The translations under genes and the position numbers were made by a program. Source: Escherichia coli (GTDB taxonomy: Bacteria; Pseudomonadota; Gammaproteobacteria; Enterobacterales; Enterobacteriaceae). From it: 64,000 nucleotides of DNA. The stretch is from the NCBI RefSeq assembly GCF_011045215.1, contig NZ_CP049201.1, one strand, 5' to 3'. The notes under the pieces were generated by a model. The model saw nothing but the letters and a program-made list of their open reading frames with translations, was not told the origin of the DNA and did not search any database. Shown here one piece after another: positions 49,453 through 63,194 of this stretch; position 1 is the stretch's first letter, and each line of letters begins with the position of its first letter.

Positions 49453-50679
49453 ATGGGAATTAACGAAATCATCATGTACATCATGATGTTCTTTATGCTG
49501 ATAGCTGCCGTAGACAGGATCCTGTCGCAGTTCGGCGGTTCTGCTCGTTTCCTCGGTAAGTTCGGTAAAAGTATCGAAGGATCAGGCGGTCAGTTCGAAG
49601 AAGGCTTTATGGCAATGGGCGCACTGGGCCTGGCGATGGTCGGTATGACCGCGCTGGCACCGGTACTGGCTCACGTACTCGGGCCGGTAATTATCCCGGT
49701 TTACGAAATGCTCGGCGCAAACCCGTCAATGTTCGCCGGAACGCTGCTGGCGTGCGATATGGGCGGCTTCTTCCTCGCCAAAGAGCTGGCGGGCGGCGAC
49801 GTAGCAGCGTGGCTATACTCTGGGTTAATTCTCGGGTCGATGATGGGGCCAACGATTGTGTTTTCCATTCCGGTGGCGCTCGGCATTATCGAACCTTCTG
49901 ACCGTCGTTATCTGGCGCTCGGCGTGCTGGCGGGCATTGTGACCATTCCGATTGGTTGTATCGCTGGTGGTCTGGTAGCTATGTACTCCGGTGTGCAGAT
50001 CAACGGCCAGCCGGTGGAATTCACTTTCGCCCTGATCCTGATGAACATGATCCCGGTGATCATTGTTGCGATTCTGGTGGCGCTGGGGCTGAAATTCATC
50101 CCGGAAAAAATGATCAACGGCTTCCAGATCTTCGCCAAATTCCTCGTTGCATTGATCACCCTCGGTCTTGCCGCTGCGGTAGTGAAATTCCTGCTTGGCT
50201 GGGAACTGATCCCCGGTCTGGATCCTATCTTTATGGCCCCTGGCGATAAACCCGGTGAGGTGATGCGCGCCATTGAAGTTATCGGTTCTATCTCCTGCGT
50301 TCTGTTAGGGGCGTATCCGATGGTGCTGCTGCTGACCCGCTGGTTTGAAAAACCGCTGATGAGCGTCGGTAAAGTGCTGAATATGAACAACATCGCGGCA
50401 GCCGGCATGGTGGCAACGCTTGCCAACAACATCCCGATGTTCGGCATGATGAAGCAGATGGATACCCGCGGCAAAGTCATCAACTGCGCCTTCGCCGTTT
50501 CTGCTGCTTTCGCCCTGGGCGACCACTTAGGGTTCGCCGCTGCCAACATGAATGCCATGATCTTCCCGATGATTGTCGGCAAGTTGATCGGCGGCGTAAC
50601 GGCGATTGGCGTGGCGATGATGCTGGTGCCAAAAGACGACGCGACCGCAGCTAAAACCGAAGCGGAGGCACAATCGTGA
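49453..50679 (+). CDS. eutH: Ethanolamine permease EutH
   Basis: 408-aa polytopic membrane ORF. Confidence 0.85.
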   Translation: MGINEIIMYIMMFFMLIAAVDRILSQFGGSARFLGKFGKSIEGSGGQFEEGFMAMGALGLAMVGMTALAPVLAHVLGPVIIPVYEMLGANPSMFAGTLLACDMGGFFLAKELAGGDVAAWLYSGLILGSMMGPTIVFSIPVALGIIEPSDRRYLALGVLAGIVTIPIGCIAGGLVAMYSGVQINGQPVEFTFALILMNMIPVIIVAILVALGLKFIPEKMINGFQIFAKFLVALITLGLAAAVVKFLLGWELIPGLDPIFMAPGDKPGEVMRAIEVIGSISCVLLGAYPMVLLLTRWFEKPLMSVGKVLNMNNIAAAGMVATLANNIPMFGMMKQMDTRGKVINCAFAVSAAFALGDHLGFAAANMNAMIFPMIVGKLIGGVTAIGVAMMLVPKDDATAAKTEAEAQS

Positions 50680-52079
50680 ACACTCGCCAGCTACTGAGCG
50701 TCGGTATCGATATCGGCACTACCACCACCCAGGTGATTTTCTCCCACCTGGAACTGGTTAACCGTGCGGCGGTGTCGCAGGTGCCGCGCTACGAATTCAT
50801 CAAACGCGAAATTAGCTGGCAAAGCCCGGTGTTCTTTACCCCTGTCGATAAACAGGGTGATTTAAAAGAAGCGGAACTGAAATCGCTGATTTTAGAGCAA
50901 TATCAGGCTGCGGGCATTGCACCGGAAAGCGTTGATTCTGGTGCCATCATCATCACCGGTGAAAGCGCGAAAACCCGCAATGCTCGCCCGGCGGTGATGG
51001 CGCTCTCTCAGTCGCTGGGCGATTTTGTCGTTGCCAGCGCCGGGCCGCACCTCGAATCCGTGATCGCCGGTCACGGAGCCGGGGCACAAACCCTTTCTGA
51101 ACAACGGCTGTGTCGGGTACTGAATATCGACATCGGCGGTGGCACCGCGAACTACGCCCTGTTCGATGCCGGAAAAATCAGCGGCACTGCCTGCCTCAAC
51201 GTCGGTGGTCGCCTGCTGGAAACCGACAGCCAGGGGCGCGTGGTTTACGCTCATAAACCGGGGCAGATGATTGTGGATGAGTGCTTCGGCGCAGGCACCG
51301 ACGCCCGTTCGCTGACCGGCGCGCAGCTGGTGCAGGTTACCCGGCGGATGGCAGAGCTGATTGTCGAAGTGATTGACGGAACGCTCTCGCCGCTCGCGCA
51401 GGCATTGATGCAAACCGGTTTGCTGCCCGCAGGTGTTACGCCCGAAATCATTACGCTTTCTGGCGGCGTGGGCGAATGTTATCGCCACCAGCCCGCCGAC
51501 CCGTTCTGTTTTGCCGATATTGGCCCGCTTCTGGCAACGGCGCTGCATGACCATCCGCGCCTGCGTGAGATGAACGTGCAGTTTCCGGCGCAAACCGTGC
51601 GTGCCACGGTGATTGGCGCGGGGGCACATACCCTTTCGCTCTCTGGCAGCACAATCTGGCTTGAGGGCGTACAACTGCCGCTGCGCAATTTGCCGGTGGC
51701 GATCCCGATTGATGAAACGGATCTGGTGAGTGCCTGGCAACAGGCGCTGATTCAACTGGATCTTGATCCCAAAACTGACGCGTACGTGCTGGCGCTTCCC
51801 GCCTCGCTGCCTGTGCGTTACGCCGCGGTACTGACGGTCATCAACGCGTTGGTCGATTTCGTCGCGCGTTTTCCGAATCCGCATCCCCTGCTGGTGGTGG
51901 CCGGGCAGGACTTTGGTAAAGCTCTGGGCATGTTGTTGCGCCCACAGCTACAACAACTCCCGTTGGCAGTCATTGACGAAGTGATTGTCCGCGCGGGGGA
52001 CTATATCGACATTGGTACGCCTCTTTTTGGCGGATCGGTTGTGCCGGTGACGGTGAAATCACTCGCATTTCCTTCCTGA
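50676..52079 (+). CDS. eutA: Ethanolamine ammonia-lyase reactivase EutA
   Basis: 467-aa ORF, ATGA overlap with eutH; ends at the island junction. Confidence 0.85.
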   Translation: MNTRQLLSVGIDIGTTTTQVIFSHLELVNRAAVSQVPRYEFIKREISWQSPVFFTPVDKQGDLKEAELKSLILEQYQAAGIAPESVDSGAIIITGESAKTRNARPAVMALSQSLGDFVVASAGPHLESVIAGHGAGAQTLSEQRLCRVLNIDIGGGTANYALFDAGKISGTACLNVGGRLLETDSQGRVVYAHKPGQMIVDECFGAGTDARSLTGAQLVQVTRRMAELIVEVIDGTLSPLAQALMQTGLLPAGVTPEIITLSGGVGECYRHQPADPFCFADIGPLLATALHDHPRLREMNVQFPAQTVRATVIGAGAHTLSLSGSTIWLEGVQLPLRNLPVAIPIDETDLVSAWQQALIQLDLDPKTDAYVLALPASLPVRYAAVLTVINALVDFVARFPNPHPLLVVAGQDFGKALGMLLRPQLQQLPLAVIDEVIVRAGDYIDIGTPLFGGSVVPVTVKSLAFPS

Positions 52080-52172
52080 ATACTGTAGTTATCAGGCGTG
52101 GCGCTGGGTTGCGGGGTGTTAGTGGGATTATATCCGGCTGTGTATCCGGTCGGGGTGATTGGTCTGTATAGC

Positions 52173-52198
52173 AAAACCCGGCGCGGGGCCGGGTGAAC
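52173..52198 (-). terminator. Rho-independent terminator after island gene 52201-52764
   Basis: Minus strand reads ACCCGGCcccgcGCCGGGTTTTG; an identical hairpin recurs at 53821-53843. Confidence 0.55.
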
Positions 52199-52200
52199 TA

Positions 52201-52764
52201 TCATTCAGGGAACAAGTTGATTTGAAGCAAACTGCCAATGTATTTACCAGTGCTTTTAATTTTTCGCTTTGATGGCTTACACGAATTCAGGTTGACACCA
52301 GCCTGGCTAGATATTGGCTTGTATTGCCGCTCCGCCAGTACGATCAGGTCTGCCGCGTCTTTTAGCTTTCCATCGTTAGCCAGTTCCAATGCTCGATCCG
52401 CCATTTGCCCGCATTGTTGAATCAGCTTAAGTTGCGATACCTCCAGTCGCAATTGCTGGATTCGTTCTACCACTTTCGCCCTAATGCGCTTAGTTTCACG
52501 CATTCCCATTCTTAATGCCTGGTTGCCAGTAAGTGAGTAAACCTCTTTTTCTTTCCTGAAGTTTGCGGCTTTACCGTCAGCTTGGACGCGCATTTTATGC
52601 GCTTCCAAGAATTCGCCCTCCAATTCATCCCTGATCTTCGCGTTGAATCTGTCGTTCTTGAGTTCATTTAACCCTTCCGCCTTGCGGATCTGGTTGATTA
52701 ACTCCAACAATTCATCACTGCGGATACGCCACTCGCTATCAACCTGTACCAAGTCAAACATGTT
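52201..52764 (-). CDS. Hypothetical island protein (about 187 aa from ATG MFDLVQVD; track ORF extends to a TTG at 52854)
   Basis: ORF track; SD-like gggag upstream of the internal ATG; coiled-coil-rich; no confident family assignment. Confidence 0.5.
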   Translation of the reverse strand, partial: NMFDLVQVDSEWRIRSDELLELINQIRKAEGLNELKNDRFNAKIRDELEGEFLEAHKMRVQADGKAANFRKEKEVYSLTGNQALRMGMRETKRIRAKVVERIQQLRLEVSQLKLIQQCGQMADRALELANDGKLKDAADLIVLAERQYKPISSQAGVNLNSCKPSKRKIKSTGKYIGSLLQINLFPE

Positions 52765-52920
52765 GTTGCTCCCGTTTTGCTGCCATAGGGCAACGGCTCG
52801 CCAGCCTTTATCACCTCCTTTAGTTGTTGCGATTCTTAACTGAATGGTTATCAAAACGCTGCGTTAATATCATTGATATGTATCAAATTTGTTTTGTGAC
52901 GCGACAATGCCTTGTGAATA

Positions 52921-52948
52921 TCAATAAAAAACCCAGCGCTATGGCTGG
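52921..52948 (-). terminator. Rho-independent terminator after island gene 52995-53723
   Basis: Minus strand CCCAGCcatagcGCTGGG followed by TTTTTTATTG. Confidence 0.55.
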
Positions 52949-52994
52949 GCTTCTCTTGATGGCTGGTTTTGTAGCTAATCGTTGGCTTTAAGGG

Positions 52995-53723
52995 TTAAGC
53001 AACAATATTAATCCCGCTCCTTGTCGCTGCCTCTTTGGCAATTTTCCCCTCGTCCTCCAGTTTAGCTAACGCCTTGTACATCCAGTGGCGGCCCGGTGCG
53101 CCATGCAGCTTGCCATCTTTGCCGATCTTACCGAACGCATGTAACGCCAAATCGTCGATAGTCCCCTTGTATCCGCCTTGCTCCTTAAGCCATTGCTCAA
53201 GCTGTTCTACTTTGAATTTTGCCGGACGTCCGCCAGCCGCTTTTTGTTGTTTAGCTGGTTCTTCTGCAATATCGCTTTTGTTGTTTAAGTCCGTCATGAC
53301 TGGTTCTCCTACAATAGCGTCGCCCTTGGTCTCGATTTGTTGATTAACTGGTTTGTCTACAATATCGATTTTGTTGTTTAGCTGGTTTTTCAACATATCA
53401 ATCTCAGCCTTTAGCGCCTCGTTTTCTCTGGCTAGTTCTTCGCAACGCTTGATAAATTTTTGTTCCATGCCGTCCGGGCTATCAACGTGCGCCGTACCCA
53501 TTACGATCTTCCCGTTGCTATCGAAGATGACAGCTTGCCAACCGACTGCGGCGAGCATTTTAAACACATCATCAGCGGTCTTGTTTGTTGTATCGCGACG
53601 CCCTTTAAACTTGTGGCTAGCAGCGCCTTTGCCTTTGAAGCCCATTGCCTCAGCGACATCTTGCCGCGTCATCTTGCGAGCGCGCTTGTTCATGCCTAAC
53701 TCAACCCAATCCATGTATTCCAT
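52995..53723 (-). CDS. Hypothetical island protein, basic N-terminus plus coiled-coil and internal repeats
   Basis: 242-aa ORF; repeated NNKIDIVDKPVNQQ / NNKSDIAEEPAKQQ segments, mirrored by imperfect DNA tandem repeats around 53280-53400. Confidence 0.55.
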   Translation of the reverse strand: MEYMDWVELGMNKRARKMTRQDVAEAMGFKGKGAASHKFKGRRDTTNKTADDVFKMLAAVGWQAVIFDSNGKIVMGTAHVDSPDGMEQKFIKRCEELARENEALKAEIDMLKNQLNNKIDIVDKPVNQQIETKGDAIVGEPVMTDLNNKSDIAEEPAKQQKAAGGRPAKFKVEQLEQWLKEQGGYKGTIDDLALHAFGKIGKDGKLHGAPGRHWMYKALAKLEDEGKIAKEAATRSGINIVA

Positions 53724-53820
53724 ACATTACCTCATTTTGTCGCTAAACGTTTTGCTTTCTAATTTATCAACAAAAAAGCGGGTGATGGTAGCCGCTTTGA
53801 TGGGGAAGTTGACAGGGATC

Positions 53821-53843
53821 AAAAACCCGGCGCGGGGCCGGGT
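53821..53843 (-). terminator. Rho-independent terminator (second copy of the 52173 hairpin)
   Basis: Minus strand ACCCGGCcccgcGCCGGGTTTTTGATC, just downstream of gene 53861-54091. Confidence 0.55.
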
Positions 53844-53860
53844 ATTAGCAAGTTAGATGA

Positions 53861-54091
53861 TTACTGGGTATCGCTGTCAGAAAGTAGTCCAATTGATTTA
53901 AAGAATTTCATCACATCCTGATAGCGATACATGACGCCCCGCCCGGTTCCCAGCACATCAACAGGGTCGGGGAATGGAGTTCCGTTCTGTTCCCATTTCT
54001 TACGCCACGAATAAAACGTTCCCCTGCTAATTCCGCCCAGCATCCGGCAGATGGCAGGGCGGCTAAGAAGGATTACTTCATTTTTATCCAT
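53861..54091 (-). CDS. AlpA/excisionase-like HTH DNA-binding protein
   Basis: 76 aa; LSRPAICRMLGGISRGTFYSWRKKW resembles the AlpA-family HTH. Confidence 0.5.
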   Translation of the reverse strand: MDKNEVILLSRPAICRMLGGISRGTFYSWRKKWEQNGTPFPDPVDVLGTGRGVMYRYQDVMKFFKSIGLLSDSDTQ

Positions 54092-54110
54092 TGTTTAATC
54101 TCCCGTGTGT

Positions 54111-54299
54111 TTATTTTGCGTAGATTAAGGCAAATGCTCTTTTGGCTTTGCTTAGTTCGTATTCGCGTTTTTCTATGATTGCCATCAGTTCTTGTGCGGT
54201 GGCTGGCACGCCCGCTCTTATCAGCGCAATCTTAGTATCCATAGCGCACACTCTTTCACGCACCATATCGAAGATAATTTCCGCTCTATCGTGTTTCAT
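54111..54299 (-). CDS. Small hypothetical island protein (62 aa)
   Basis: ORF track; co-directional and closely spaced with the AlpA-like gene. Confidence 0.4.
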   Translation of the reverse strand: MKHDRAEIIFDMVRERVCAMDTKIALIRAGVPATAQELMAIIEKREYELSKAKRAFALIYAK

Positions 54300-54502
54300 G
54301 ATTTCACCTCATATTTGTTGCTAAACCTTGTAAACCCTTGTTTGACTACAAAATACACCTGGTTAAGCGACTGATAAAATGATTTAGGTCAATTTATTGG
54401 TTGATGATTTATGTCTGATTGGATTTGTCTACAAATGGCAGGTTAGTCAACAAATGATGAAACCAGGGAATGGCGGTTATAATGTCAGCGGGGATTGTGA
54501 GA

Positions 54503-54545
54503 AAGGCCCGGGTAGGTTGCTAACTGCCTGGGCCTTTATTTTTGG
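54503..54545 (+). terminator. Plus-strand rho-independent terminator candidate inside the minus-strand gene array
   Basis: aaaggcccgggtagg..cctgggccttt hairpin (about 14 bp stem with two G-U pairs) followed by atttttgg; on the minus strand no U-tract follows. Confidence 0.45.
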
Positions 54546-54648
54546 CGCGTGTACGTGAAATCTGGAAAATTTGCAGGGTAGTTGTTGAGGGATTTTTCGC
54601 GTAGGAGCGTGAAGGGTCCGCCAGTCATCGCCCTGACGTAGCGGTGAA

Positions 54649-55050
54649 TTACTTGCGAGGCTCACCCATCGGCCAGGCACCTTCATTGCGACGATAACCA
54701 ATCCGGTACTCTTCCGGCAGCGGCAAGCCCTGCTCACGATATGGACGCAGATCGAAGCCAAAAACAGGATCGTCGTCGTAGGCGAGGAATAGCCCGGCAG
54801 GCTCTGCCACGCGTTCGATAATCAGTTCCCCATCTTCAACGAAGAAGATCAGATTATCGCGAAAGTCCGTTACCTCACTGACGTGATAACATTCGGCATG
54901 TGCGTCCAGCCAGGCTTCTCGGTATTCCTGAATCTCGGCTTCTGACCATGTTGAAACAGGACGCTCCCAAATTCCCAGGCTGGATTTGCCCTGGCGGGAG
55001 AATAATTTTGCCTCTTTGCTCTGCTCTGGTTTTCTGTTTAAAAAGCTCAT
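54649..55050 (-). CDS. Hypothetical island protein (133 aa)
   Basis: ORF track; SD ggagaa upstream of ATG; start overlaps a TAA of an upstream open frame (TAATG). Confidence 0.5.
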   Translation of the reverse strand: MSFLNRKPEQSKEAKLFSRQGKSSLGIWERPVSTWSEAEIQEYREAWLDAHAECYHVSEVTDFRDNLIFFVEDGELIIERVAEPAGLFLAYDDDPVFGFDLRPYREQGLPLPEEYRIGYRRNEGAWPMGEPRK

Positions 55051-55186
55051 TATTCTTCTCCTTTGAACGGATTGTTCTTGCTCTCTAATAACTTAGCGCG
55101 ACCCAGTAACGTCCGGGCAAGCGCCTCCGCCTTCCTTAGCCTAAGCCCTGCGTCTTCTGCGTCCAGATCTACATTCCTGATAGCCT

Positions 55187-55450
55187 CTACAGCCTGCTCC
55201 GCTGCGTCCGGGCGTGAATCCACTTAAATATGCCGATATGCTCACGAAAGTCTGGATGCTCATATTGCCAGCGGCAGATTGTTCTGAAGCTCGGCATGTC
55301 AGGCATGTTGCCAATCTCTCTGAGACTATGGCCTTCAGCTACCAGCAAGCAGATTTCTTCAGCGATAGCGACCCCATACTTAGCGCTTTTTCTGCTTAAA
55401 CTTGTGACATCAACAGGTAAGTTATTGATTTCTTTATCATCACCCTTCAT
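55187..55450 (-). CDS. Hypothetical HTH-like island protein (87 aa)
   Basis: ORF track; SLREIGNMPDMPSFRTICRWQ segment is HTH-like; preceded by the 11-bp repeat array. Confidence 0.45.
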   Translation of the reverse strand: MKGDDKEINNLPVDVTSLSRKSAKYGVAIAEEICLLVAEGHSLREIGNMPDMPSFRTICRWQYEHPDFREHIGIFKWIHARTQRSRL

Positions 55451-55522
55451 AATTACCCCCGAATTGATAGCGAATTGATAGCGAATTACCCCGAATTACC
55501 CCCGAATTACCCCCGAATCACC
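55450..55522. repeat. Array of seven 10-11 bp direct repeats (gaattaccccc / gaattgatagc)
   Basis: taattaccccc, gaattgatagc x2, gaattacccc, gaattaccccc x2, gaatcacc, read directly from sequence. Confidence 0.9.
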
Positions 55523-55527
55523 ATCAT

Positions 55528-55809
55528 TTAACCCTCGCCTACGTCTGCGTCGATGCTTGCTAACTGGCTGTGTAGATCGCGTTCAATCATTTTTACCTTT
55601 TTCACAAAATCCCTTTCCTCGGCGGTGGCGGGCGCGCCCTGGGCTATGTTTTTCGTGAGGTCGTGGAAAGTGCCGAAAACATAAAGGGAGAACAGCCTTA
55701 ATTGTTGCCGCTTCATTGGCAAATCACTGTTGCTATGTTTGATCTCAGCGACGCCTTTCGAAATAACACGGGCCATCCCATGACAAATTCTTAACGTAAG
55801 CGCAGACAT
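55528..55809 (-). CDS. Hypothetical island protein (93 aa)
   Basis: ORF track only. Confidence 0.4.
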   Translation of the reverse strand: MSALTLRICHGMARVISKGVAEIKHSNSDLPMKRQQLRLFSLYVFGTFHDLTKNIAQGAPATAEERDFVKKVKMIERDLHSQLASIDADVGEG

Positions 55810-55930
55810 GATATTTACTCCCCGACTGGTATAATGAACGTGGTTTTAAACGTTGCTATTTGCTAACCATTTAATCTGTTAACTCAATTTCGCATTGTTG
55901 GCCCGGCACGAACACCGGGCTTTTCTTTAC

Positions 55931-56272
55931 CTATTCGAAATAGCTTCCAATATCCGGTGTCCGGGTATCAGTTTTCCGGGTCGGCTCGAAGTACGATTCC
56001 AGATCCGGCGTTTTCGGCCCACGCTGGGCGTTGGCGGCGGGTTGCTTTTCTTCTGGCTGTTCCGGCTGTTTACTACCAAATCGGCGCTCCAGTTGGTCCA
56101 TCAGCACTACCATCATTTCCTGGACCAGCTTTTCATCGGCTTTATCAAGGTTCTCCAATACCATCGCCATCCCTTTGCGGAATTTAAGCTCAGCGTCGTC
56201 CGGTTCCGGTGCTGATTCGTTTGCTTTAACTGCCAGGGCGATCCGGCGTTTTGCTTCATCCAAAAAATTCAT
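55931..56272 (-). CDS. Hypothetical acidic island protein ending in SYFE motifs (113 aa)
   Basis: ORF track; C-terminus DLESYFEPTRKTDTRTPDIGSYFE. Confidence 0.5.
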   Translation of the reverse strand: MNFLDEAKRRIALAVKANESAPEPDDAELKFRKGMAMVLENLDKADEKLVQEMMVVLMDQLERRFGSKQPEQPEEKQPAANAQRGPKTPDLESYFEPTRKTDTRTPDIGSYFE

Positions 56273-56277
56273 TTTGT

Positions 56278-56721
56278 TTATTCCCCCATGTGGAAATAGT
56301 CATCTAAGCGGCGATTAAACTCGTCGCTGCCATCGAAATATTCACGGATACTTTTATTGACCAGATCATCACCGTCGAAATACTGGCGCGTGAAATCGTC
56401 CAATTCCCCATCGAAGTATTGACGTGTGAAATCGTCTAATTCCCCTTCAAAATATTGACGCGCATCAGGCGCTCTGTTTGGCGCTGTAGCAATCTCAGAT
56501 TGATTGCCCTGTAACTTATCGACGTTTGCTAAATACACGCCCAGTGAGCTGTTTGTTCCCATTACCGCAAGCATTTTCCGGCGATCTGCCATGTTCGGCG
56601 CGAGCGATGATAATTGAGCTTTAATTTTGTCCACTTCCTGATTAACAATACGGTCAATCAGTGGTTGATTCGTGCGAATAATTTCCTGTGCCAACTGGCG
56701 AATATATTCTTTGCGTGTCAT
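56278..56721 (-). CDS. Hypothetical island protein with tandem QYF[ED]GELDDFTR repeats (147 aa)
   Basis: ORF track; encoded by 36-bp tandem DNA repeats at about 56376-56463. Confidence 0.5.
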   Translation of the reverse strand: MTRKEYIRQLAQEIIRTNQPLIDRIVNQEVDKIKAQLSSLAPNMADRRKMLAVMGTNSSLGVYLANVDKLQGNQSEIATAPNRAPDARQYFEGELDDFTRQYFDGELDDFTRQYFDGDDLVNKSIREYFDGSDEFNRRLDDYFHMGE

Positions 56722-56739
56722 TTCTTATCTCCGTTCATC

Positions 56740-57123
56740 TCATTTCTGTAAAAAACCCATACCGTGGCCCAGGCGATTTGAAATTTTCCCGGCAAGCATC
56801 CGGCGAATATGTTTTTCGTTGATGATGTCGTGAGTGACCGGATCTTCACCTTTCATACATTCCGGCATCTGGTCAAACAATACGGAAGCGCCTTCATCAA
56901 TAATCTCAGTTAAGACTGCTGGCAGCATATTAATGATGCGTTCTGCTTCGTCGTTCATTGCTTTATCGAACGCTTTTTTATCCATTGCTTCGGCGGATGG
57001 TTTGTAATTGTCGCCAGTCAGGTTAAGGTAAGTGTTGTTTGGGTGATACATGGCATTCACTCCTTTTACTTTGATTGTTGCGATTTCTTTGTTTTTGTTA
57101 ATTGTGGTGCCTTTGACTTTCAT
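56740..57123 (-). CDS. Hypothetical island protein (127 aa)
   Basis: ORF track; ATGA start/stop overlap with the upstream HNH-like gene. Confidence 0.45.
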   Translation of the reverse strand: MKVKGTTINKNKEIATIKVKGVNAMYHPNNTYLNLTGDNYKPSAEAMDKKAFDKAMNDEAERIINMLPAVLTEIIDEGASVLFDQMPECMKGEDPVTHDIINEKHIRRMLAGKISNRLGHGMGFLQK

Positions 57124-57539
57124 GCTGCTTCTTCCTTCAATAATTGTGGCAATTTGCCTGTTAGTTCGATTTCTTCATTAATAGATGCAAGTAACTGTCT
57201 CAGTTTGCGATGTAATAGCTGGTGACGCTCTCTCGGCATTTTTACCAGGTTGCTTAAGCGGTTATTCTGCGGATCGTAGTCCCGGTGATGGATATCATAT
57301 TTTCGCTCATCGTAAACACCGTAGCACCATAACCAGGCAGCCTTTTCTATTGTCATGCAGGTACGTTTTCCGTTGCTTAAACAAATGGTTATACTCAGGT
57401 GACCGCGATGTTTTTCGTTTAAGCTGCCTTTAATTACCTGGCCTGTGCTGCGGTTGTGAAATAAACCAGTTTCAGGGTCGTAGTGATATTTCTGTCGTAA
57501 TATATCAACTGATAACCGTAGTCTTGTAAGATTGTCCAT
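57120..57539 (-). CDS. HNH-family endonuclease-like protein
   Basis: 139 aa; AAWLWCYGVYDERKYDIHHRDYDPQNNRLSNL resembles the phage HNH_3 pattern (from memory). Confidence 0.55.
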   Translation of the reverse strand: MDNLTRLRLSVDILRQKYHYDPETGLFHNRSTGQVIKGSLNEKHRGHLSITICLSNGKRTCMTIEKAAWLWCYGVYDERKYDIHHRDYDPQNNRLSNLVKMPRERHQLLHRKLRQLLASINEEIELTGKLPQLLKEEAA

Positions 57540-57571
57540 GATGTTCTACCTCAATGTGATTGCTGTGTTAA

Positions 57572-57757
57572 TTATCTTTCTTCTTGTGGCCTATTCAGCC
57601 AGGCCTCGATCTCGCTACGCCAGAATAATAAACGACAATTTCGCGGCGTAAATGGTTGGGGTATTGTCTTATCTTTTAATAGCCATCTTCGAATCGTTCT
57701 TGTTGATACCCCCGCTATTAATGCGAAAGCTCGCAGATCTATAACTTCATCTCTCAT
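57572..57757 (-). CDS. AlpA-family transcriptional regulator
   Basis: Internal ATG with SD gaggt; MRDEVIDLRAFALIAGVSTRTIRRWL...LFWRSEIEAWL matches the AlpA HTH signature; the track's N-terminal extension is low-complexity repeat translation. Confidence 0.6.
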   Translation of the reverse strand: MRDEVIDLRAFALIAGVSTRTIRRWLLKDKTIPQPFTPRNCRLLFWRSEIEAWLNRPQEER

Positions 57758-57780
57758 GTTCTTACCTCGATTAAAAAGGA

Positions 57781-57839
57781 CCGCCCCCAGGGAAAGAAGA
57801 AAGAGGAAAGAGGAAAGAGGAAAAACTTCCTGGAGGCGG
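57781..57839. repeat. Homopurine heptamer repeat (GAAAGAR x4) inside an 11-bp inverted repeat
   Basis: ccgcccccagg [agggaaagaagaaagaggaaagaggaaagaggaaaaa] cttcctggaggcgg; 24-82 nt upstream of the AlpA-like start codon. Confidence 0.85.
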
Positions 57840-58537
57840 GTAATTCGGATTCCTTGAATCAATATCCCATGTGATACTTAATATTATAAAGGGCGGCGGG
57901 CTATGTCGCTATTTTTGCCATAGTGTGACACCATTAATTTATTAACAAAAAGTGCTATTTATTAAATCTTTTTTCGGCAGGTGCAAGAAAAATAATTGCG
58001 ACACGGTAGGGTAGCGGGCGATAATAATCATGTAAGGAGTAGCCACCTTACGCCTCCAAATGTGATCGATAAAAATAATAGTCTCAATTCTTTCTCCCGC
58101 TTCTCGGCGGTTTTTTTGCCTGCAATCACACATCAAAAAAACACATCGAATTGATATGCCTTTAAAACGCAATATAACGCATTTTGACGGCCTTAATTTT
58201 TGCCTATCCACTCGGAAGCGTAAGCCTGTTTTGATTCGTCTGGCGTGGAATGGTGCGGCGGTAATATCAGATCTCAGCGTTCTGTGTGGTGGGATGGAAT
58301 AGCCTGGCAGGATCTGCGTGTGATTTCATTCATCCAACCTTGGATGAATGGTCCGATCTGGTCAGTAGTCCGGCACAAATAAAAAGCGCCTGCGGGCGTA
58401 GCAGACGCTTTGTGTACAGGCTTATCAGTACGGGATGTGCACGAATGATTATACCACCCTCAGAAAAACGTTTGCTTTTGCACTTAAACGGATAAGTGGT
58501 ATTTCTTGGTCTTCATTGGTTTTAGCTCACCATAGGC

Positions 58538-58765
58538 TCATTTAGGTGCGCCCCTGTCGATAATTCGGTACATGTTCTCGGTATATCTCCCGTTAATCAC
58601 CGTTCTGGTAACAACAATCACACCGTTTTCCTCCAGAAAGGCAATGGCCCGCTTCACTCCCTGGCGGCTTACACCGGATAGCTGCGCCAGCCTGTCAATG
58701 GAGATGTTGTATTTGTCCGGCTGGCTTGTCAGGATCTGGAATACCGCTCGTGCTGTTTTCGTCAT
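58538..58765 (-). CDS. Winged-helix/HTH DNA-binding protein (75 aa), candidate island regulator
   Basis: ISIDRLAQLSGVSRQGVKRAIAFLEENGVIV HTH-like segment; divergent from the plus-strand cargo module. Confidence 0.5.
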   Translation of the reverse strand: MTKTARAVFQILTSQPDKYNISIDRLAQLSGVSRQGVKRAIAFLEENGVIVVTRTVINGRYTENMYRIIDRGAPK

Positions 58766-59037
58766 GGCAAAAACTCATTGAAATTGGATACCCTTAGAAC
58801 GCTCTCAAACGCTCCGTAATGCGATGAGAATTTTACCTAAGCAAGTGTAGCTCTTTATTAGTTTTATGATGCCGTAGGCCGATAGAAGGTGCGCTCTCTG
58901 AAGTTTCATTGTCTATCAGTGGTGGGTAATGCTGCCTTTACTATTGGCGTCAAGAAAATCACTGGTGTAGATTGGGCGAATAGTTTACTATTCAAACAAG
59001 GCACAATGGCCTTAGCGGATTGATGTCAGGAGATACC

Positions 59038-59385
59038 ATGTCAAAAATAGTTACTTTGTTTGCGACTAAGCGAGAAGGGAAATCCCTTTCTGTGCGCACT
59101 CGTAAGCCAAAAGCTATGACTGGCTTGCGTAAAACAAATCGTCTGACGCATCTTGACGCGTTAGCGTATCGACTAGGATACCAGTTGGTGCGCGGTAAAA
59201 GTGTCATGTTTCGCTACACTGCTACTCTCGATCACGAAGAAAACAAAGTGATGAATGCGGCCTCGCCTATGGCTGTACCACGAGTAAAAAAAATGACGTT
59301 CACACAAGCGTGTGATTTATCAAAAGATTTATTCGATTCACGAGAAGAACGCTTAAAGAGTGTAAGCTTTGATGGTCCAGAATGA
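59038..59385 (+). CDS. Hypothetical basic protein (115 aa), candidate antitoxin or partner of downstream gene
   Basis: ATG at 59038 with SD aggaga 5 nt upstream; stop overlaps the downstream start by 14 nt; AT-rich. Confidence 0.5.
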   Translation: MSKIVTLFATKREGKSLSVRTRKPKAMTGLRKTNRLTHLDALAYRLGYQLVRGKSVMFRYTATLDHEENKVMNAASPMAVPRVKKMTFTQACDLSKDLFDSREERLKSVSFDGPE

Positions 59386-59887
59386 ATTTATTGGTAAGGT
59401 CTACAGTGATAACAAGTTTAAAACAAACGATGAATTAAAGAGCTTTAAGGATTCGTTTATTTATCATTGGAGATATGGACATCATCCTGATTTTGGAAAG
59501 GATACTCTTTTCCATAAACCCCCGTGTGTATATCCTATCCATTTACGTAAAGTCCATGTAAATATTGGTCTTTATACCAATCAGTACGGCTATAGCGGGA
59601 CAGAACAATGCTGGGATGACTGGTCTACTGGTCGTTATGGTCCCGGTGGTTTCGAAAAAGTTACCCCTACATCTGATGCTTATCTTATATACGCTGTATG
59701 TAAAAATAGAAATGCTGGCGTGTTAGACTTCTGGTTTCCTCCCGCACACAAAAACGCTGAGTTCGAATCCTCTGTACAGTTTGTGGCTGAGATGGCTGAT
59801 AAGTTTTATGAGTCTATCAAGGCGGACCCGATGCCGCGCGATCAGAATCCTTGGCATACGGGGTATATAGTTAAAAAACCAGCCTGA
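59372..59887 (+). CDS. YafO-like toxin-domain candidate (171 aa)
   Basis: FIYHWRYGHHPDFGKDTLF...HLRKVHVN...SDAYLIYAV resembles remembered YafO motifs (FISYKRDG..PDTFGRDALY, HIHL, AHLVYC); family assignment unverified. Confidence 0.45.
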   Translation: MVQNEFIGKVYSDNKFKTNDELKSFKDSFIYHWRYGHHPDFGKDTLFHKPPCVYPIHLRKVHVNIGLYTNQYGYSGTEQCWDDWSTGRYGPGGFEKVTPTSDAYLIYAVCKNRNAGVLDFWFPPAHKNAEFESSVQFVAEMADKFYESIKADPMPRDQNPWHTGYIVKKPA

Positions 59888-60438
59888 TCCACGCAATACT
59901 GATTGTTTTTGGCCTTGTATGGTGTGGTCTGATTTGAGGCAAAATTATTTAATCCCTTAAAAAACTAACTTCAAAAGACTAAAACCAGGGGGATGGTCCC
60001 TCTCGCTCCGCTCCAGGTACCATCCCTGTCGGGATGGGTTTATTGTAGAGTTAAAATTAATTACTCACATCGTCACACCTTGCGAAAGTTTTGCTCAATT
60101 ATCATTCAAACATAGCACAAAAAATATTCGATTTAGTTAGTGTGCACTGACTTTTTTATCAATTTACTTTCATTCGAAAGTCATGGGTTAAATATTAATC
60201 ATCTGGCTGTGGCACGCATGGATTCACCGAGGGTATTTTGGACCATTTGGTCAAAATTCATAAGTACATGATTTCATGGTGATTTATTTTTCTGTATCTT
60301 GCTTTCATTCGAAAGTGGAAACGAAGAATTGGCAATTTATTGATTCAGATCATTGACATTGCATATTTGTGGCGGTTGTCACGGTTGTTTTTTGAGCGCT
60401 TCAACCGTCGATATTGAGTATAAACCCGGCCTTATAGT

Positions 60439-61644
60439 TCACGGTTCAAGTGGATTACCGTCACCAGCCAATATTGAATCAATAGCGTCGGCGTAATCCT
60501 GCATCATTGCTCGCCGTTGCTTCAGGTAGGCCGCCTGGTTATAAACGCCGCGCACACCTTTCGGGACGTGGGCCAATTGGATTTCGATCCAGTCTGGTGA
60601 GTATCTGCCAGACTCATTAAGCGCCGTTGAAAAGGTGGTCCGCCAGCCATGACCAGTGGCAATGGATTTATAGCCGATCCTCTCAAGCGCCTTCAGTATC
60701 GCGCTGGCTGAAAGTGGCTTATCCATGAATCGACCAGGGAAGACGAAAGCACTGTATCCGCTCCTTGTAAACTGGTCCTGTAATAGCTCCACCGCCTGCC
60801 GTGATAGCGGGACCACATGCGGGCGGCGGGCCTTCATGACTTCAGCGGGCAATGTGATTGTTGCGTCCTCCAGGTTTATCCATTCCCAACGGCACAAACG
60901 CAGTTCTGCGGTCCTTAATGCCGTTAATATAAGCAAACGTATTGCCGTCTGAATCTGGACGCTCCCGGCCCTCTCAAGGGCTTTGTAGAAGGCCGGAATT
61001 TCACTAATCGGTATCCACGCGTTGTGACCAGGTCGGCGGGCCTTCAGTGCCGTATCAAGATCTGCAACCGGATTCCTCGTTACCAGTTCGGTGATAACGG
61101 CAAACTTGAAGATCTCACCGATGCGCTGGCGTAGCTTGCGGGCCTGCTCCGGTGCGGTACGTTCTTTCTTCTGGAGTAATGCCAGCACGTCACGGGCGGT
61201 TATATCGACAATCGACCGCTTGCCAAGTACCGGATAGACGTCTTTTTCTAGGGCCGATCTGACCTGTTTTGCATAGGATTCCGACCACCCTCCAACCCTA
61301 GTAGCAAACCAGTCTTCCGCCACCTTCTTAAATCCTGCCGCCATGTTGAGCGCATCAATGGCTTTTTCCTTGCGGGCTTGTTCCACTGGGTTAATTCCAT
61401 TGGCAATAAGGGATCTGCTCTCCGTGGCGCGCCTGCGTGCTTCTTTGAGTGTGATTAGCGGGTAAACACCAATAGCCTGCAAAAACTCTCGTTTATTCAA
61501 CCAATACCTGAATCGCCAGTATTTCGAACCGTTGGGATGCACCAGCAAAAACAGCCCCGGCGTCAGTGAATCGGTGAGTTTATAGGGCTTGTCCTGCGGC
61601 TGTGCGGCGTCTATGGCCTTTGCTGTGAGTGGTGTCTTGCTCAA
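60439..61644 (-). CDS. intZ: P4-type tyrosine integrase
   Basis: 401-aa ORF; N-terminal arm-binding-like domain plus catalytic region (HGWRTT...RGVYN); at the island edge next to eutB as for CPZ-55 IntZ. Confidence 0.85.
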   Translation of the reverse strand: MSKTPLTAKAIDAAQPQDKPYKLTDSLTPGLFLLVHPNGSKYWRFRYWLNKREFLQAIGVYPLITLKEARRRATESRSLIANGINPVEQARKEKAIDALNMAAGFKKVAEDWFATRVGGWSESYAKQVRSALEKDVYPVLGKRSIVDITARDVLALLQKKERTAPEQARKLRQRIGEIFKFAVITELVTRNPVADLDTALKARRPGHNAWIPISEIPAFYKALERAGSVQIQTAIRLLILTALRTAELRLCRWEWINLEDATITLPAEVMKARRPHVVPLSRQAVELLQDQFTRSGYSAFVFPGRFMDKPLSASAILKALERIGYKSIATGHGWRTTFSTALNESGRYSPDWIEIQLAHVPKGVRGVYNQAAYLKQRRAMMQDYADAIDSILAGDGNPLEP

Positions 61645-61832
61645 AACCGGATACCTTGATTTAACGACTGGATAACCCCGATCATGTATCCGGCGCGTTC
61701 GGTTGCGTTCGGCAGGATAAGTAACGGGCGTATTAAGTGGAACACCTTACAGGACAAGGGCTAACGATGAAATAGAATTGTTTGCAGGCTGTGAGAAATG
61801 TTAATCGTCACTTCTTCCTGAGGGAACGACTT

Positions 61833-63194
61833 ATGAAACTAAAGACCACATTGTTCGGCAATGTATATCAGTTTAAGGATGTAAAAGAGGTGCTGGCTAA
61901 AGCCAACGAACTGCGTTCGGGGGATGTGCTGGCGGGCGTCGCAGCGGCAAGCTCACAGGAGCGCGTGGCGGCAAAGCAGGTGTTGTCGGAAATGACCGTA
62001 GCGGACATCCGCAATAATCCGGTGATTGCCTATGAAGATGACTGCGTGACGCGGCTGATTCAGGACGATGTTAACGAAACGGCCTACAACCAGATTAAAA
62101 ACTGGAGCATCAGCGAACTGCGTGAGTATGTGCTGAGCGATGAAACCAGCGTGGACGACATTGCCTTTACCCGCAAAGGGCTGACCTCGGAAGTGGTCGC
62201 GGCGGTAGCGAAGATTTGCTCCAACGCGGACCTGATCTACGGCGCGAAGAAAATGCCGGTAATCAAAAAGGCCAATACCACCATCGGTATTCCGGGCACC
62301 TTCAGCGCCCGTTTGCAGCCAAATGACACTCGTGACGACGTGCAAAGTATCGCCGCGCAAATCTACGAAGGGCTTTCCTTCGGGGTGGGCGATGCGGTGA
62401 TCGGCGTTAACCCGGTGACTGACGACGTGGAAAACTTAAGCCGCGTGCTGGATACCATTTATGGCGTGATCGACAAATTCAACATCCCAACTCAGGGCTG
62501 CGTACTGGCGCACGTCACCACTCAGATCGAAGCGATTCGTCGTGGCGCACCAGGCGGGCTGATTTTCCAGAGTATCTGTGGCAGTGAAAAAGGGCTGAAA
62601 GAGTTTGGCGTGGAACTTGCGATGCTCGACGAAGCGCGCGCAGTGGGTGCAGAGTTCAACCGTATCGCCGGGGAAAACTGCCTCTACTTCGAAACCGGAC
62701 AAGGTTCAGCGCTATCCGCTGGCGCTAACTTCGGCGCAGACCAGGTGACGATGGAAGCACGTAACTATGGGCTGGCGCGTCATTACGATCCGTTTATCGT
62801 CAACACCGTGGTCGGCTTTATTGGGCCGGAGTATCTCTACAACGACCGCCAGATTATCCGTGCGGGCTTAGAAGATCACTTTATGGGCAAGCTGAGCGGC
62901 ATCTCTATGGGCTGTGACTGCTGTTACACCAACCACGCTGACGCTGACCAGAACCTCAACGAAAACCTGATGATCCTGCTCGCCACCGCAGGCTGCAACT
63001 ACATCATGGGGATGCCGTTGGGCGATGACATCATGCTCAACTACCAGACCACGGCCTTCCACGACACTGCCACTGTGCGTCAGTTACTCAACCTGCGCCC
63101 GTCACCGGAGTTTGAACGCTGGCTGGAAAGCATGGGCATTATGGCAAACGGTCGCTTGACCAAACGGGCGGGCGATCCGTCACTGTTCTTCTGA
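61833..63194 (+). CDS. eutB: Ethanolamine ammonia-lyase large subunit EutB
   Basis: ATG at 61833 gives MKLKTTLFGNVYQFKDVKEVLAKANE (453 aa); SD gaggga. Confidence 0.9.
   Translation: MKLKTTLFGNVYQFKDVKEVLAKANELRSGDVLAGVAAASSQERVAAKQVLSEMTVADIRNNPVIAYEDDCVTRLIQDDVNETAYNQIKNWSISELREYVLSDETSVDDIAFTRKGLTSEVVAAVAKICSNADLIYGAKKMPVIKKANTTIGIPGTFSARLQPNDTRDDVQSIAAQIYEGLSFGVGDAVIGVNPVTDDVENLSRVLDTIYGVIDKFNIPTQGCVLAHVTTQIEAIRRGAPGGLIFQSICGSEKGLKEFGVELAMLDEARAVGAEFNRIAGENCLYFETGQGSALSAGANFGADQVTMEARNYGLARHYDPFIVNTVVGFIGPEYLYNDRQIIRAGLEDHFMGKLSGISMGCDCCYTNHADADQNLNENLMILLATAGCNYIMGMPLGDDIMLNYQTTAFHDTATVRQLLNLRPSPEFERWLESMGIMANGRLTKRAGDPSLFF

Follow-up and report, generated by a model that had tools for sequence, protein, structure and literature searches.

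A Heptamer Repeat within a Conserved Leader Hairpin Upstream of an AlpA-like Regulator Gene in an eutA/eutB Island of Escherichia coli

The repeat, its arms, and the gene behind them

The locus described here lies in a 64,000-nt stretch of the Escherichia coli contig NZ_CP049201.1 (hereafter the window) and consists of a heptamer repeat enclosed by an inverted repeat, at positions 57781-57839, directly upstream of a minus-strand gene for a small AlpA-like helix-turn-helix (HTH) protein, the first gene of an operon in an island between eutA and eutB (Table 1). On the plus strand the element reads CCGCCCCCAGG-GAAAGAAGAAAGAGGAAAGAGGAAAGAGGAAAAACTT-CCTGGAGGCGG, with two 11-nt arms around a 37-nt middle. 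The enclosed heptamer tract of the original prediction was borne out. Indeed, the all-purine run measures 37 nt (57789-57825), and Tandem Repeats Finder reports an array of period 7 at 57791-57823 (4.7 copies, 92% matches, consensus GGAAAGA). This is the longest homopurine or homopyrimidine run of the window, which contains one other run of at least 20 nt, exactly 20 nt long.

As DNA, the arms are complementary at 10 of 11 positions. In minus-strand RNA, the sense of the gene, the odd position becomes a U·G wobble and the stem is paired at all 11 positions; in plus-strand RNA the same position would give a C·A mismatch. The order in the minus-strand RNA is CCGCCUCCAGG - AAGUUUUU(CCUCUUU)3CUUCUUUC - CCUGGGGGCGG - UCCUUUUUAAUCGAGGUAAGAACAUG, and the stem is present in both the minimum-energy and the centroid folds. 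Taken by itself within the window, the inverted repeat is statistically unremarkable and the single-sequence case for a structure is weak; GC-rich 11-nt repeats of this kind, with no more than one mismatch, number 25 in the window and on average 11.4 in block shuffles. The significance of the inverted repeat thus comes from comparison with relatives and not from window statistics. On the plus strand, GGCGGCGGG, a near-copy of the hairpin arm GGAGGCGGG at a distance of 60 nt, makes up a terminator-like site; this site is specific to the lineage of the window and is not conserved in E. coli relatives.

Table 1. Coordinates of the leader element and of other features of the island in the window
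Feature	Position	Strand	Remarks
RNA hairpin 5' arm (CCGCCUCCAGG, gene sense)	57829..57839	-	Identical in all type-A relatives
Hairpin loop, AAGUUUUU(CCUCUUU)x3 CUUCUUUC (the heptamer tract)	57792..57828	-	37 nt, 92% pyrimidine in RNA; Tandem Repeats Finder
Hairpin 3' arm (CCUGGGGGCGG)	57781..57791	-	
U-rich tail UCCUUUUU	57773..57780	-	Directly after stem; TransTermHP-style tail score -3.28
Shine-Dalgarno GAGG of AlpA-like gene	57765..57768	-	7 nt before ATG; (C)GAGG kept in all types except E (GAAGAGG)
AlpA-like small HTH gene	57572..57757	-	61 aa, first of minus-strand operon, ATG at 57757; PHROG 66, E = 1.5e-7; Pfam HTH_17, E = 9.7e-4
Leader box UUCAAGGAA	57850..57858	-	AUUCA-N-GG in all lineages; 5-22 nt 5' of hairpin
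Predicted -10 TATAAT of proximal promoter	57883..57888	-	~43 nt 5' of hairpin in window; TAAAAT, TATAAT, or GATAAT in all lineages
Terminator-like site GGCGGCGGG	57892..57910	+	Near-copy of hairpin arm
Conserved box CACUAUGGCAAAA (-10-like TATGG box)	57913..57925	-	18-19 nt after phage motif
AATAGCACTTTTTGTTAATAA, copy of multicopy promoter motif of T1-like (Drexlerviridae) phages	57939..57959	-	Points toward gene
Candidate small-RNA gene	58020..58117	+	-35 TTGCGA at 57996, 18-nt spacer, -10 GATAAT 58020-58025; terminator 58097-58110 + T7
Noncoding block cctttaaaacgcaatataacgcattttgacggccttaatttttgcctatcc	58160..58209		
eutA	50676..52079		
Island	52100..61700		
76-aa open reading frame	53861..54091	-	
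87-aa TerS-like open reading frame	55187..55450		
147-aa open reading frame	56278..56721	-	
Two overlapping open reading frames	59020..59887	+	
P4-type integrase	60439..61644		
eutB	61782..63194		

Hairpin conservation and heptamer number among related islands

Megablast gave no match to the region in 5,426 complete E. coli genomes, and relatives were found by a more sensitive blastn search, in which only the noncoding region upstream of the gene matched, at ~74% identity. Further relatives were reached through neighboring proteins and a metagenome scan. An arms-plus-gap pattern returned 73 matches in metagenomes, five of which are true relatives and the remainder chance occurrences in GC-rich DNA; the same pattern had no match in viral contigs, and the leaders of types B and C (Table 2) had none in phage genomes.

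In every eutA/eutB (intZ) island lineage examined, a hairpin stands directly 5' of the sequence NNC-U5-6-(C)GAGG-N6-11-ATG of the AlpA-like gene. The hairpins fall into five stem types (Table 2) with stems of 7-11 bp, which together contain 47 pairs as counted from the stem base, 45 of them Watson-Crick and two G·U, with no mismatches. Nearly every stem position shows two to three pair types across lineages, a compensatory pattern of conservation. The element also has a strand polarity: the two G·U pairs, in types A and E, form only in the sense of the gene, and of eight variants, seven have a sense hairpin of greater stability than the antisense one. RNAfold places the hairpin within the minimum-energy fold of all 10 leaders analyzed, with hairpin energies of -12.8 to -21.2 kcal/mol. 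Pairs were counted in a register set by hand from the conserved 3' tail; MAFFT combined with RNAalifold missed the pairing, as the 5' arms share no sequence and were misaligned. Together with the conserved U run that follows them, these stems uphold the original suggestion of a terminator- or attenuator-like minus-strand hairpin before the Shine-Dalgarno sequence of the regulator. Type-A arms precede three different regulator alleles (MRDEV..., MKAITLEQ..., and MNDS...), which indicates that the leader recombines as a module.

Table 2. Stem types of the leader hairpin
Type	5' arm / 3' arm	Loop	Lineages
A	CCGCCUCCAGG / CCUGGGGGCGG	22-37 nt	Window, L001, L002, L007-9, L026, L053, L063, L070, L072
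B	GCGGUGAGG / CCUCACCGC	16-17 nt	L003, L004, L093-95
C	GGCGGC(U)GUG / CACGCCGCC	14 nt	L010-12, L014-16
D	AAGCGGC / GCCGCUU	23 nt	L013
E	AGCGGCGGUUG / CAGCCGCCGCU	16 nt	L092

The number of heptamers is not invariant in relatives, a polymorphism that had been proposed as a check on the tract: the window has three CCTCTTT copies, and relatives have two or one. The nearest relatives (L007-9 and L097-99), which encode an identical HNH protein and have ~95% identical flanks, carry two copies, and the ~600 nt around their leader differ from the window only by one CCTCTTT fewer and one extra A in a distant A run. The metagenome relative L063 has a single copy with the same arms and a different alpA allele, the loops of L026 and L053 contain CCTTTT-CCTCTTT, and the E. 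coli type A' loop, at 27 nt, has no CCUC unit. Throughout, the type-A arms are unchanged while loop length varies widely. The alignments thus indicate that slippage has changed the copy number, in line with the slipped-strand mispairing originally envisaged. The part of that proposal that found no support is an on/off switch by phase variation: the repeat lies in a hairpin loop, outside any reading frame or -35/-10 spacer, and the predicted energy of the hairpin moves only from -21.2 through -20.8 to -20.5 kcal/mol for one, two, and three copies. In a loop of this length, the variation probably is neutral or has a fine-tuning effect. The heptamer tract is therefore not the functional unit; it is a lineage-specific, slippage-prone expansion, from one to three copies, of a pyrimidine-rich loop common to most lineages.

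These comparisons also bear on whether the element might act as DNA, that is, as a phase-variable switch, as a homopurine mirror tract forming H-DNA, or as an inverted-repeat operator for a dimeric protein. Such a role would fit the differing heptamer number among close relatives and the status of the tract as the sole long homopurine run in the window, yet we regard it as very improbable. All copy-number differences are between strains, none within a strain, and the placement of the repeat gives a switch no frame or spacer to act on. The hairpin lineages of types B-E lack a homopurine tract, and the retention of the hairpin in these sister lineages speaks against H-DNA, once put forward for the tract, as its function; the 37-nt run itself is only partly mirror-symmetric. 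The spacing of the arms ranges from 14 to 37 bp and includes steps of 7 bp, or two thirds of a helical turn, which would be hard to accommodate for a protein touching both arms. Finally, the G·U pairs correspond to C·A mismatches in the other strand of a cruciform and so argue for RNA.

A coding role for the repeats had been raised as well, through an upstream ATG at 57862. On the minus strand position 57862 is a TTG, and the nearest upstream ATG (57870-57868) is followed two codons on by an in-frame TGA (ATG GGA TAT TGA). Were the regulator to start at this TTG, which is in frame with the gene in the window, the heptamers would lie within a 96-aa protein. We give this next to no credence, since the 7-nt difference inside the tract breaks the frame in the closest relatives, the difference is 10 nt in the E. 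coli relatives, and other lineages have loop indels of 1 nt. In addition, a good GAGG-N7-ATG is conserved at 57757, and the added stretch would be a low-complexity sequence of Leu, Phe, Ser, and Pro.

A proposed leader terminator weighed against other roles

The sequence following the hairpin is as regular as the stem. After each stem there is a 2- to 4-nt spacer and then U4-6, in the form NNC-U5-6 in four of the five types, with the tail of subtype A' reading CAUCUUUU (U4). TransTermHP-style tail scores range from -2.2 to -4.5, and six of eight variants pass the usual cutoff of -2.5. All five types likewise have a GC-rich stem within the range of about 5-14 bp that is stable on the transcribed strand. 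The interval between the hairpin and the start codon is too short to hold a promoter, so that the hairpin must lie on the path of every mRNA for the gene. These features point to the hairpin as a leaky intrinsic terminator or attenuator that gates the main operon of the island, and we hold this reading with moderate confidence, the terminator idea of the original prediction being the best supported of the readings considered. The element is a real and mildly unusual regulatory element, most likely a leader terminator whose pyrimidine loop is conserved and unusually long, and it belongs to an uncharacterized family of satellite-like islands.

In the mechanism that we propose, transcription would start ~35-45 nt 5' of the hairpin, from a promoter whose -10 (TATAAT) is good and whose -35 is poor. 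Across all lineages, the -10 hexamer is kept 35-45 nt 5' of the hairpin; a pattern scanner made no promoter call at this site with its poor -35, and we infer the assignment of the proximal promoter. Polymerase would then copy the 11-bp GC-rich stem and UCCUUUUU, the signature of a Rho-independent terminator. Termination at the hairpin is expected to be partial, because the loop is long and the first three residues of the tail are not all U. Such a leaky attenuator would hold the regulator and the packaging-type genes close to silence while the island is at rest, and full expression would need boosted initiation, read-through, or both. If the hairpin does terminate transcription, induction must include read-through. 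Candidate triggers are an infecting helper phage or, by analogy with the AlpA of E. coli phage-inducible chromosomal islands (PICIs), which activates itself, and with Pseudomonas AlpA, an antiterminator, the island's own regulator. A box between the promoter and the hairpin, AUUCA-N-GG(A), is kept in the window, L003, L004, L012, L013, and L092 although its surroundings differ.

Neither a conserved leader peptide, any frame of which would be shifted by the 1-nt and 7-nt indels, nor a conserved alternative antiterminator structure was found in the leaders. A leader peptide starting at the GUG inside the stem was considered for types B and C and rejected, as 1-nt loop indels alter both its frame and its sequence.

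Several observations weigh against a terminator. The loops are 14-37 nt long in every lineage, compared with the 3-8 nt typical of intrinsic terminators; the U run begins 2-4 nt past the stem, its proximal nucleotides are not all U, and two variants fall below the tail cutoff. The pattern scanner did not call the hairpin site either, and because of the long loop, a terminator of this kind is one that standard predictors miss. The loops are also G-poor and pyrimidine-rich in four of the five types, with the motif UCCAUAUUU common to types B, C, and E, and the conservation of such long loops suggests a role beyond that of a plain terminator. Moreover, the sequence matches of the regulator do not establish it as an AlpA family member, and the experimentally studied PICI EcCICFT073 has no equivalent hairpin and U run before alpA, so that the analogy with PICI and Pseudomonas AlpA is a borrowed one.

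Some of these features could instead reflect a posttranscriptional role in cis, with the hairpin serving as an insulator or stabilizer 5' of the ribosome site, the U run and loop as a platform for S1 or standby binding, or the CCUC repeats as a partner of GAGG, in which case copy number would tune translation. In favor of such a role, the hairpin ends 8-12 nt 5' of the Shine-Dalgarno sequence in all lineages, and the pyrimidine-rich loops of four types are unstructured. For type A, the duplex between the loop and the ribosome-binding site is predicted at -9.9, -12.5, and -15.2 kcal/mol for one, two, and three copies. However, shuffled loops of matched composition pair with this site at least as well in every lineage, and more strongly in types C and E. 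Read by eye, the AUUCA of the leader box could pair with the start region AUGAAU in types B and C, and type E shows a corresponding change on both sides (GUUCA/UGAAC); the minimum-energy folds include this closing helix for type B and not for type C. Yet the pairing spans only 4-7 bp and is absent from the window's own allele. Termination is also the simpler explanation of a conserved U5-6 run directly behind a GC-rich stem. We judge a cis role of this kind to be unlikely.

The conserved loops might otherwise function in trans. If transcription terminated at the hairpin, the ~100-nt leader could itself be a small RNA, the CU-rich terminator loop being its seed for purine-rich ribosome sites of the host, the island, or the helper phage; heptamer expansion would then multiply the seed, and the proposal is compatible with a terminator. 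LhrC-type RNAs base-pair with ribosome sites through such CU-rich or UCCC motifs, one of them in the terminator loop. In favor of a trans-acting leader, long G-poor loops with CCUC or CUCC, for which a plain terminator has no need, are kept in types A, B, and E, and a weak Rfam alignment to the Listeria LhrC (23.6 bits against a gathering threshold of 110), a resemblance only, falls exactly on the hairpin. In that alignment the consensus terminator hairpin of LhrC also has a CU-rich loop (UUUACUCC...CUUUU). On the other side, the type D loop lacks a CCUC or CUCC motif and type C has only UUCC, no target was identified, and the similarity to LhrC is not homology. A trans-acting leader thus appears distinctly improbable, and a leaky terminator before the regulator remains the reading that we prefer.

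The island and its place among known systems

The hairpin and its gene lie in an island of ~9.5 kb and 45% GC, flanked by DNA of 57% GC, at the site that the CPZ-55 prophage (intZ) occupies in E. coli K-12. A P4-type integrase is encoded near its eutB end, and the operon behind the hairpin comprises the HTH gene, an HNH endonuclease, proteins of unknown function, and a TerS-like fragment. At the same site in E. coli and in near-identical genomes, relatives encode in addition an Sf6-type small terminase and a TMP_3 protein. On the basis of its gene content and of that of the same-site relatives, the island resembles a phage satellite. The island of the window differs from its closest relatives (L097-L099, ~12 kb) in that it is without the Sf6-type small terminase and the 731-aa TMP_3 protein and keeps only the 87-aa TerS-like open reading frame. 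No primase/replicase (pri-rep) was seen among the ten island proteins scanned. K-12 itself was considered as a transcript reference and set aside: the CPZ-55 content at the position of the hairpin differs and includes iterons, and the K-12 transcript maps are therefore unusable here. In CPZ-55 (L096, 4940-5045), four tandem copies of GGTGGGTCAAAAGTTGCCGTTAA lie between yffL and yffM, an iteron-like array that is absent from the island of the window.

The label "AlpA-like" for the regulator proved loose. The protein matches PHROG 66, described as "excisionase and transcriptional regulator"; in Pfam only HTH_17 (E = 9.7e-4) and MerR-type matches were obtained, with none to Phage_AlpA, and no AlpA chain in the PDB matched even at E ≤ 1. 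Exact-protein look-up and a word-based homology search with the 61-aa sequence returned nothing. A peptide-pattern scan of one genome per species returned two irrelevant loci, and of viral contigs nothing. Public annotations and gene-call sets for near-identical islands (L007-L009, L001, and L002) leave the gene uncalled in several cases, and none of the protein collections searched contains its exact sequence. The protein, left in an annotation gap, is likely the master regulator of the island. By eye, the N-terminal half of the 76-aa minus-strand open reading frame at the far end of the island resembles the HTH region of the regulator.

Upstream of the proximal promoter, the best-conserved noncoding motif is AATAGCACTTTTTGTTAATAA; virulent T1-like phages have a match to it in intergenic DNA, with 30 of 31 positions identical. 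In these phages, for example phage TR1 or its relatives, the motif is written AATAGCACTTTTTGTTAA. Phage TR1 contains it four times (0 expected), always in intergenic DNA and oriented at the downstream genes, and in IMG/VR it occurs in many genomes of 42-52 kb, with several exact copies in each. A TATAAT-like hexamer lies exactly 21 nt downstream of the motif in 71 of 109 distinct instances; in the island, the -10-like box stands 18-19 nt after the motif, not 21. Because a phage promoter motif precedes the island regulator, this arrangement suggests that the island is wired to infection by a T1-like helper. The island proteins showed no similarity to proteins of phage TR1.

A candidate small RNA of ~58031-58117 is divergent from the regulator. 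Its -10 is conserved, a 5' hairpin and the terminator both show compensatory changes in relatives, and a single-stranded segment, AAAUGUGAUC, is conserved; the gene is present in 150 of the 5,426 E. coli genomes. Rfam has no family for either the small RNA or the leader, with subthreshold matches to STnc430, LhrC, and GcvB that do not amount to homology. Predicted pairing between the small RNA and the leader was not above shuffled controls and was not conserved, and no target of the small RNA was identified. Downstream of the small-RNA terminator, the noncoding block cctttaaaacgcaatataacgcattttgacggccttaatttttgcctatcc is kept in most island lineages.

Elsewhere in the island, two overlapping plus-strand open reading frames lie between the integrase and the HTH gene; their counterparts in E. 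coli relatives are annotated as a YafO-family toxin and a small partner, and the 172-aa member matches PHROG 1651 (E = 9e-43). Judging from these matches, the two probably form a toxin-antitoxin pair. The 147-aa minus-strand open reading frame encodes a tandem peptide repeat (RQYFEGELDDFT / RQYFDGELDDFT / RQYFDGDD) and has no family match.

The locus bears on how Gram-negative phage satellites sense their helpers and is a compact regulatory cassette in which a phage-type motif, a weak promoter, a terminator-like hairpin, the regulator gene, and a divergent small RNA stand together. One could speculate that the eutA/eutB islands form an undescribed family of satellites of virulent T1-like phages, that infection opens the leader terminator lock through the phage promoter motif together with antitermination or a loop-binding factor, that the terminated leader and the divergent small RNA act as further regulators, and that heptamer slippage tunes leakiness; as a whole, we rate this scenario as rather improbable. 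Termination at the hairpin, if it occurs, would link satellite induction to antitermination, as shown for Pseudomonas AlpA. The natural series of one, two, and three heptamers and the five compensatory stem variants provide ready-made mutants, and the regulator gene missed by gene callers in several assemblies is a lesson for annotation.

Comparison with known systems sets the element apart from each of them in some respect. In the LhrC RNAs of Listeria and in RNAIII and the Rsa RNAs of Staphylococcus, hairpin or terminator loops carry CU-rich seeds against Shine-Dalgarno sequences, and the large C/U-rich, G-poor loops with CCUC or CUCC resemble those of the island leader. In contrast to these RNAs, the island element lies in an mRNA leader of a Gram-negative host and has no known target and no homology to them, the LhrC alignment being at chance level. 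Simple-sequence contingency loci likewise have a short tandem repeat that differs in copy number among close relatives, whereas the repeat here has only one to three copies, sits in the hairpin loop of an untranslated leader, and has no frame or promoter spacing that depends on it. The similarity to enterobacterial Rho-independent terminators and attenuators lies in the GC-rich stem of 7-11 bp, the energy of -13 to -21 kcal/mol, the four to six U residues within 8-9 nt after the stem, and the location in a 5' leader; the island hairpin differs in its very long loop, in the displacement of the U run by 2-4 nt, and in having no conserved leader peptide.

The arrangement also recalls the lambda PR'-tR' leader controlled by Q and the leader terminator of alpBCDE controlled by AlpA in P. 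aeruginosa, in which a promoter, a short leader, and a GC-rich hairpin with a U run precede an operon that is kept off until induction. Pseudomonas AlpA acts at its target promoter by enabling RNA polymerase to read past an intrinsic terminator that lies downstream (PMC7969949; PMC9371919). The resemblance extends to the first gene of the island operon, which encodes a small AlpA-type HTH protein. Unlike in these two systems, the terminator-like hairpin precedes the regulator gene itself, and no binding element or sigma-dependent pause was identified in the island leader. The loop, of 14-37 nt, is also longer than the few nucleotides seen in these systems, and the island protein is not detectably homologous to solved AlpA. 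Because the protein is weakly HTH_17 and matches no solved AlpA, the parallel with both Pseudomonas and PICI AlpA is one of analogy and not of membership. In E. coli PICIs, AlpA activates its own expression, and the helper phage switches it on via an unidentified inducer (PMC6092414; PMC11773190). The island differs from PICIs in that its phage motif derives from virulent T1-like phages and not from lambdoid prophages and in that no pri-rep was seen. Nevertheless, it shares with EcCICFT073 and EcCIMP1 the form of a small integrase island, an AlpA-type gene at the head of the operon, packaging-type genes (HNH and TerS-like), and a phage-derived motif in the promoter region.

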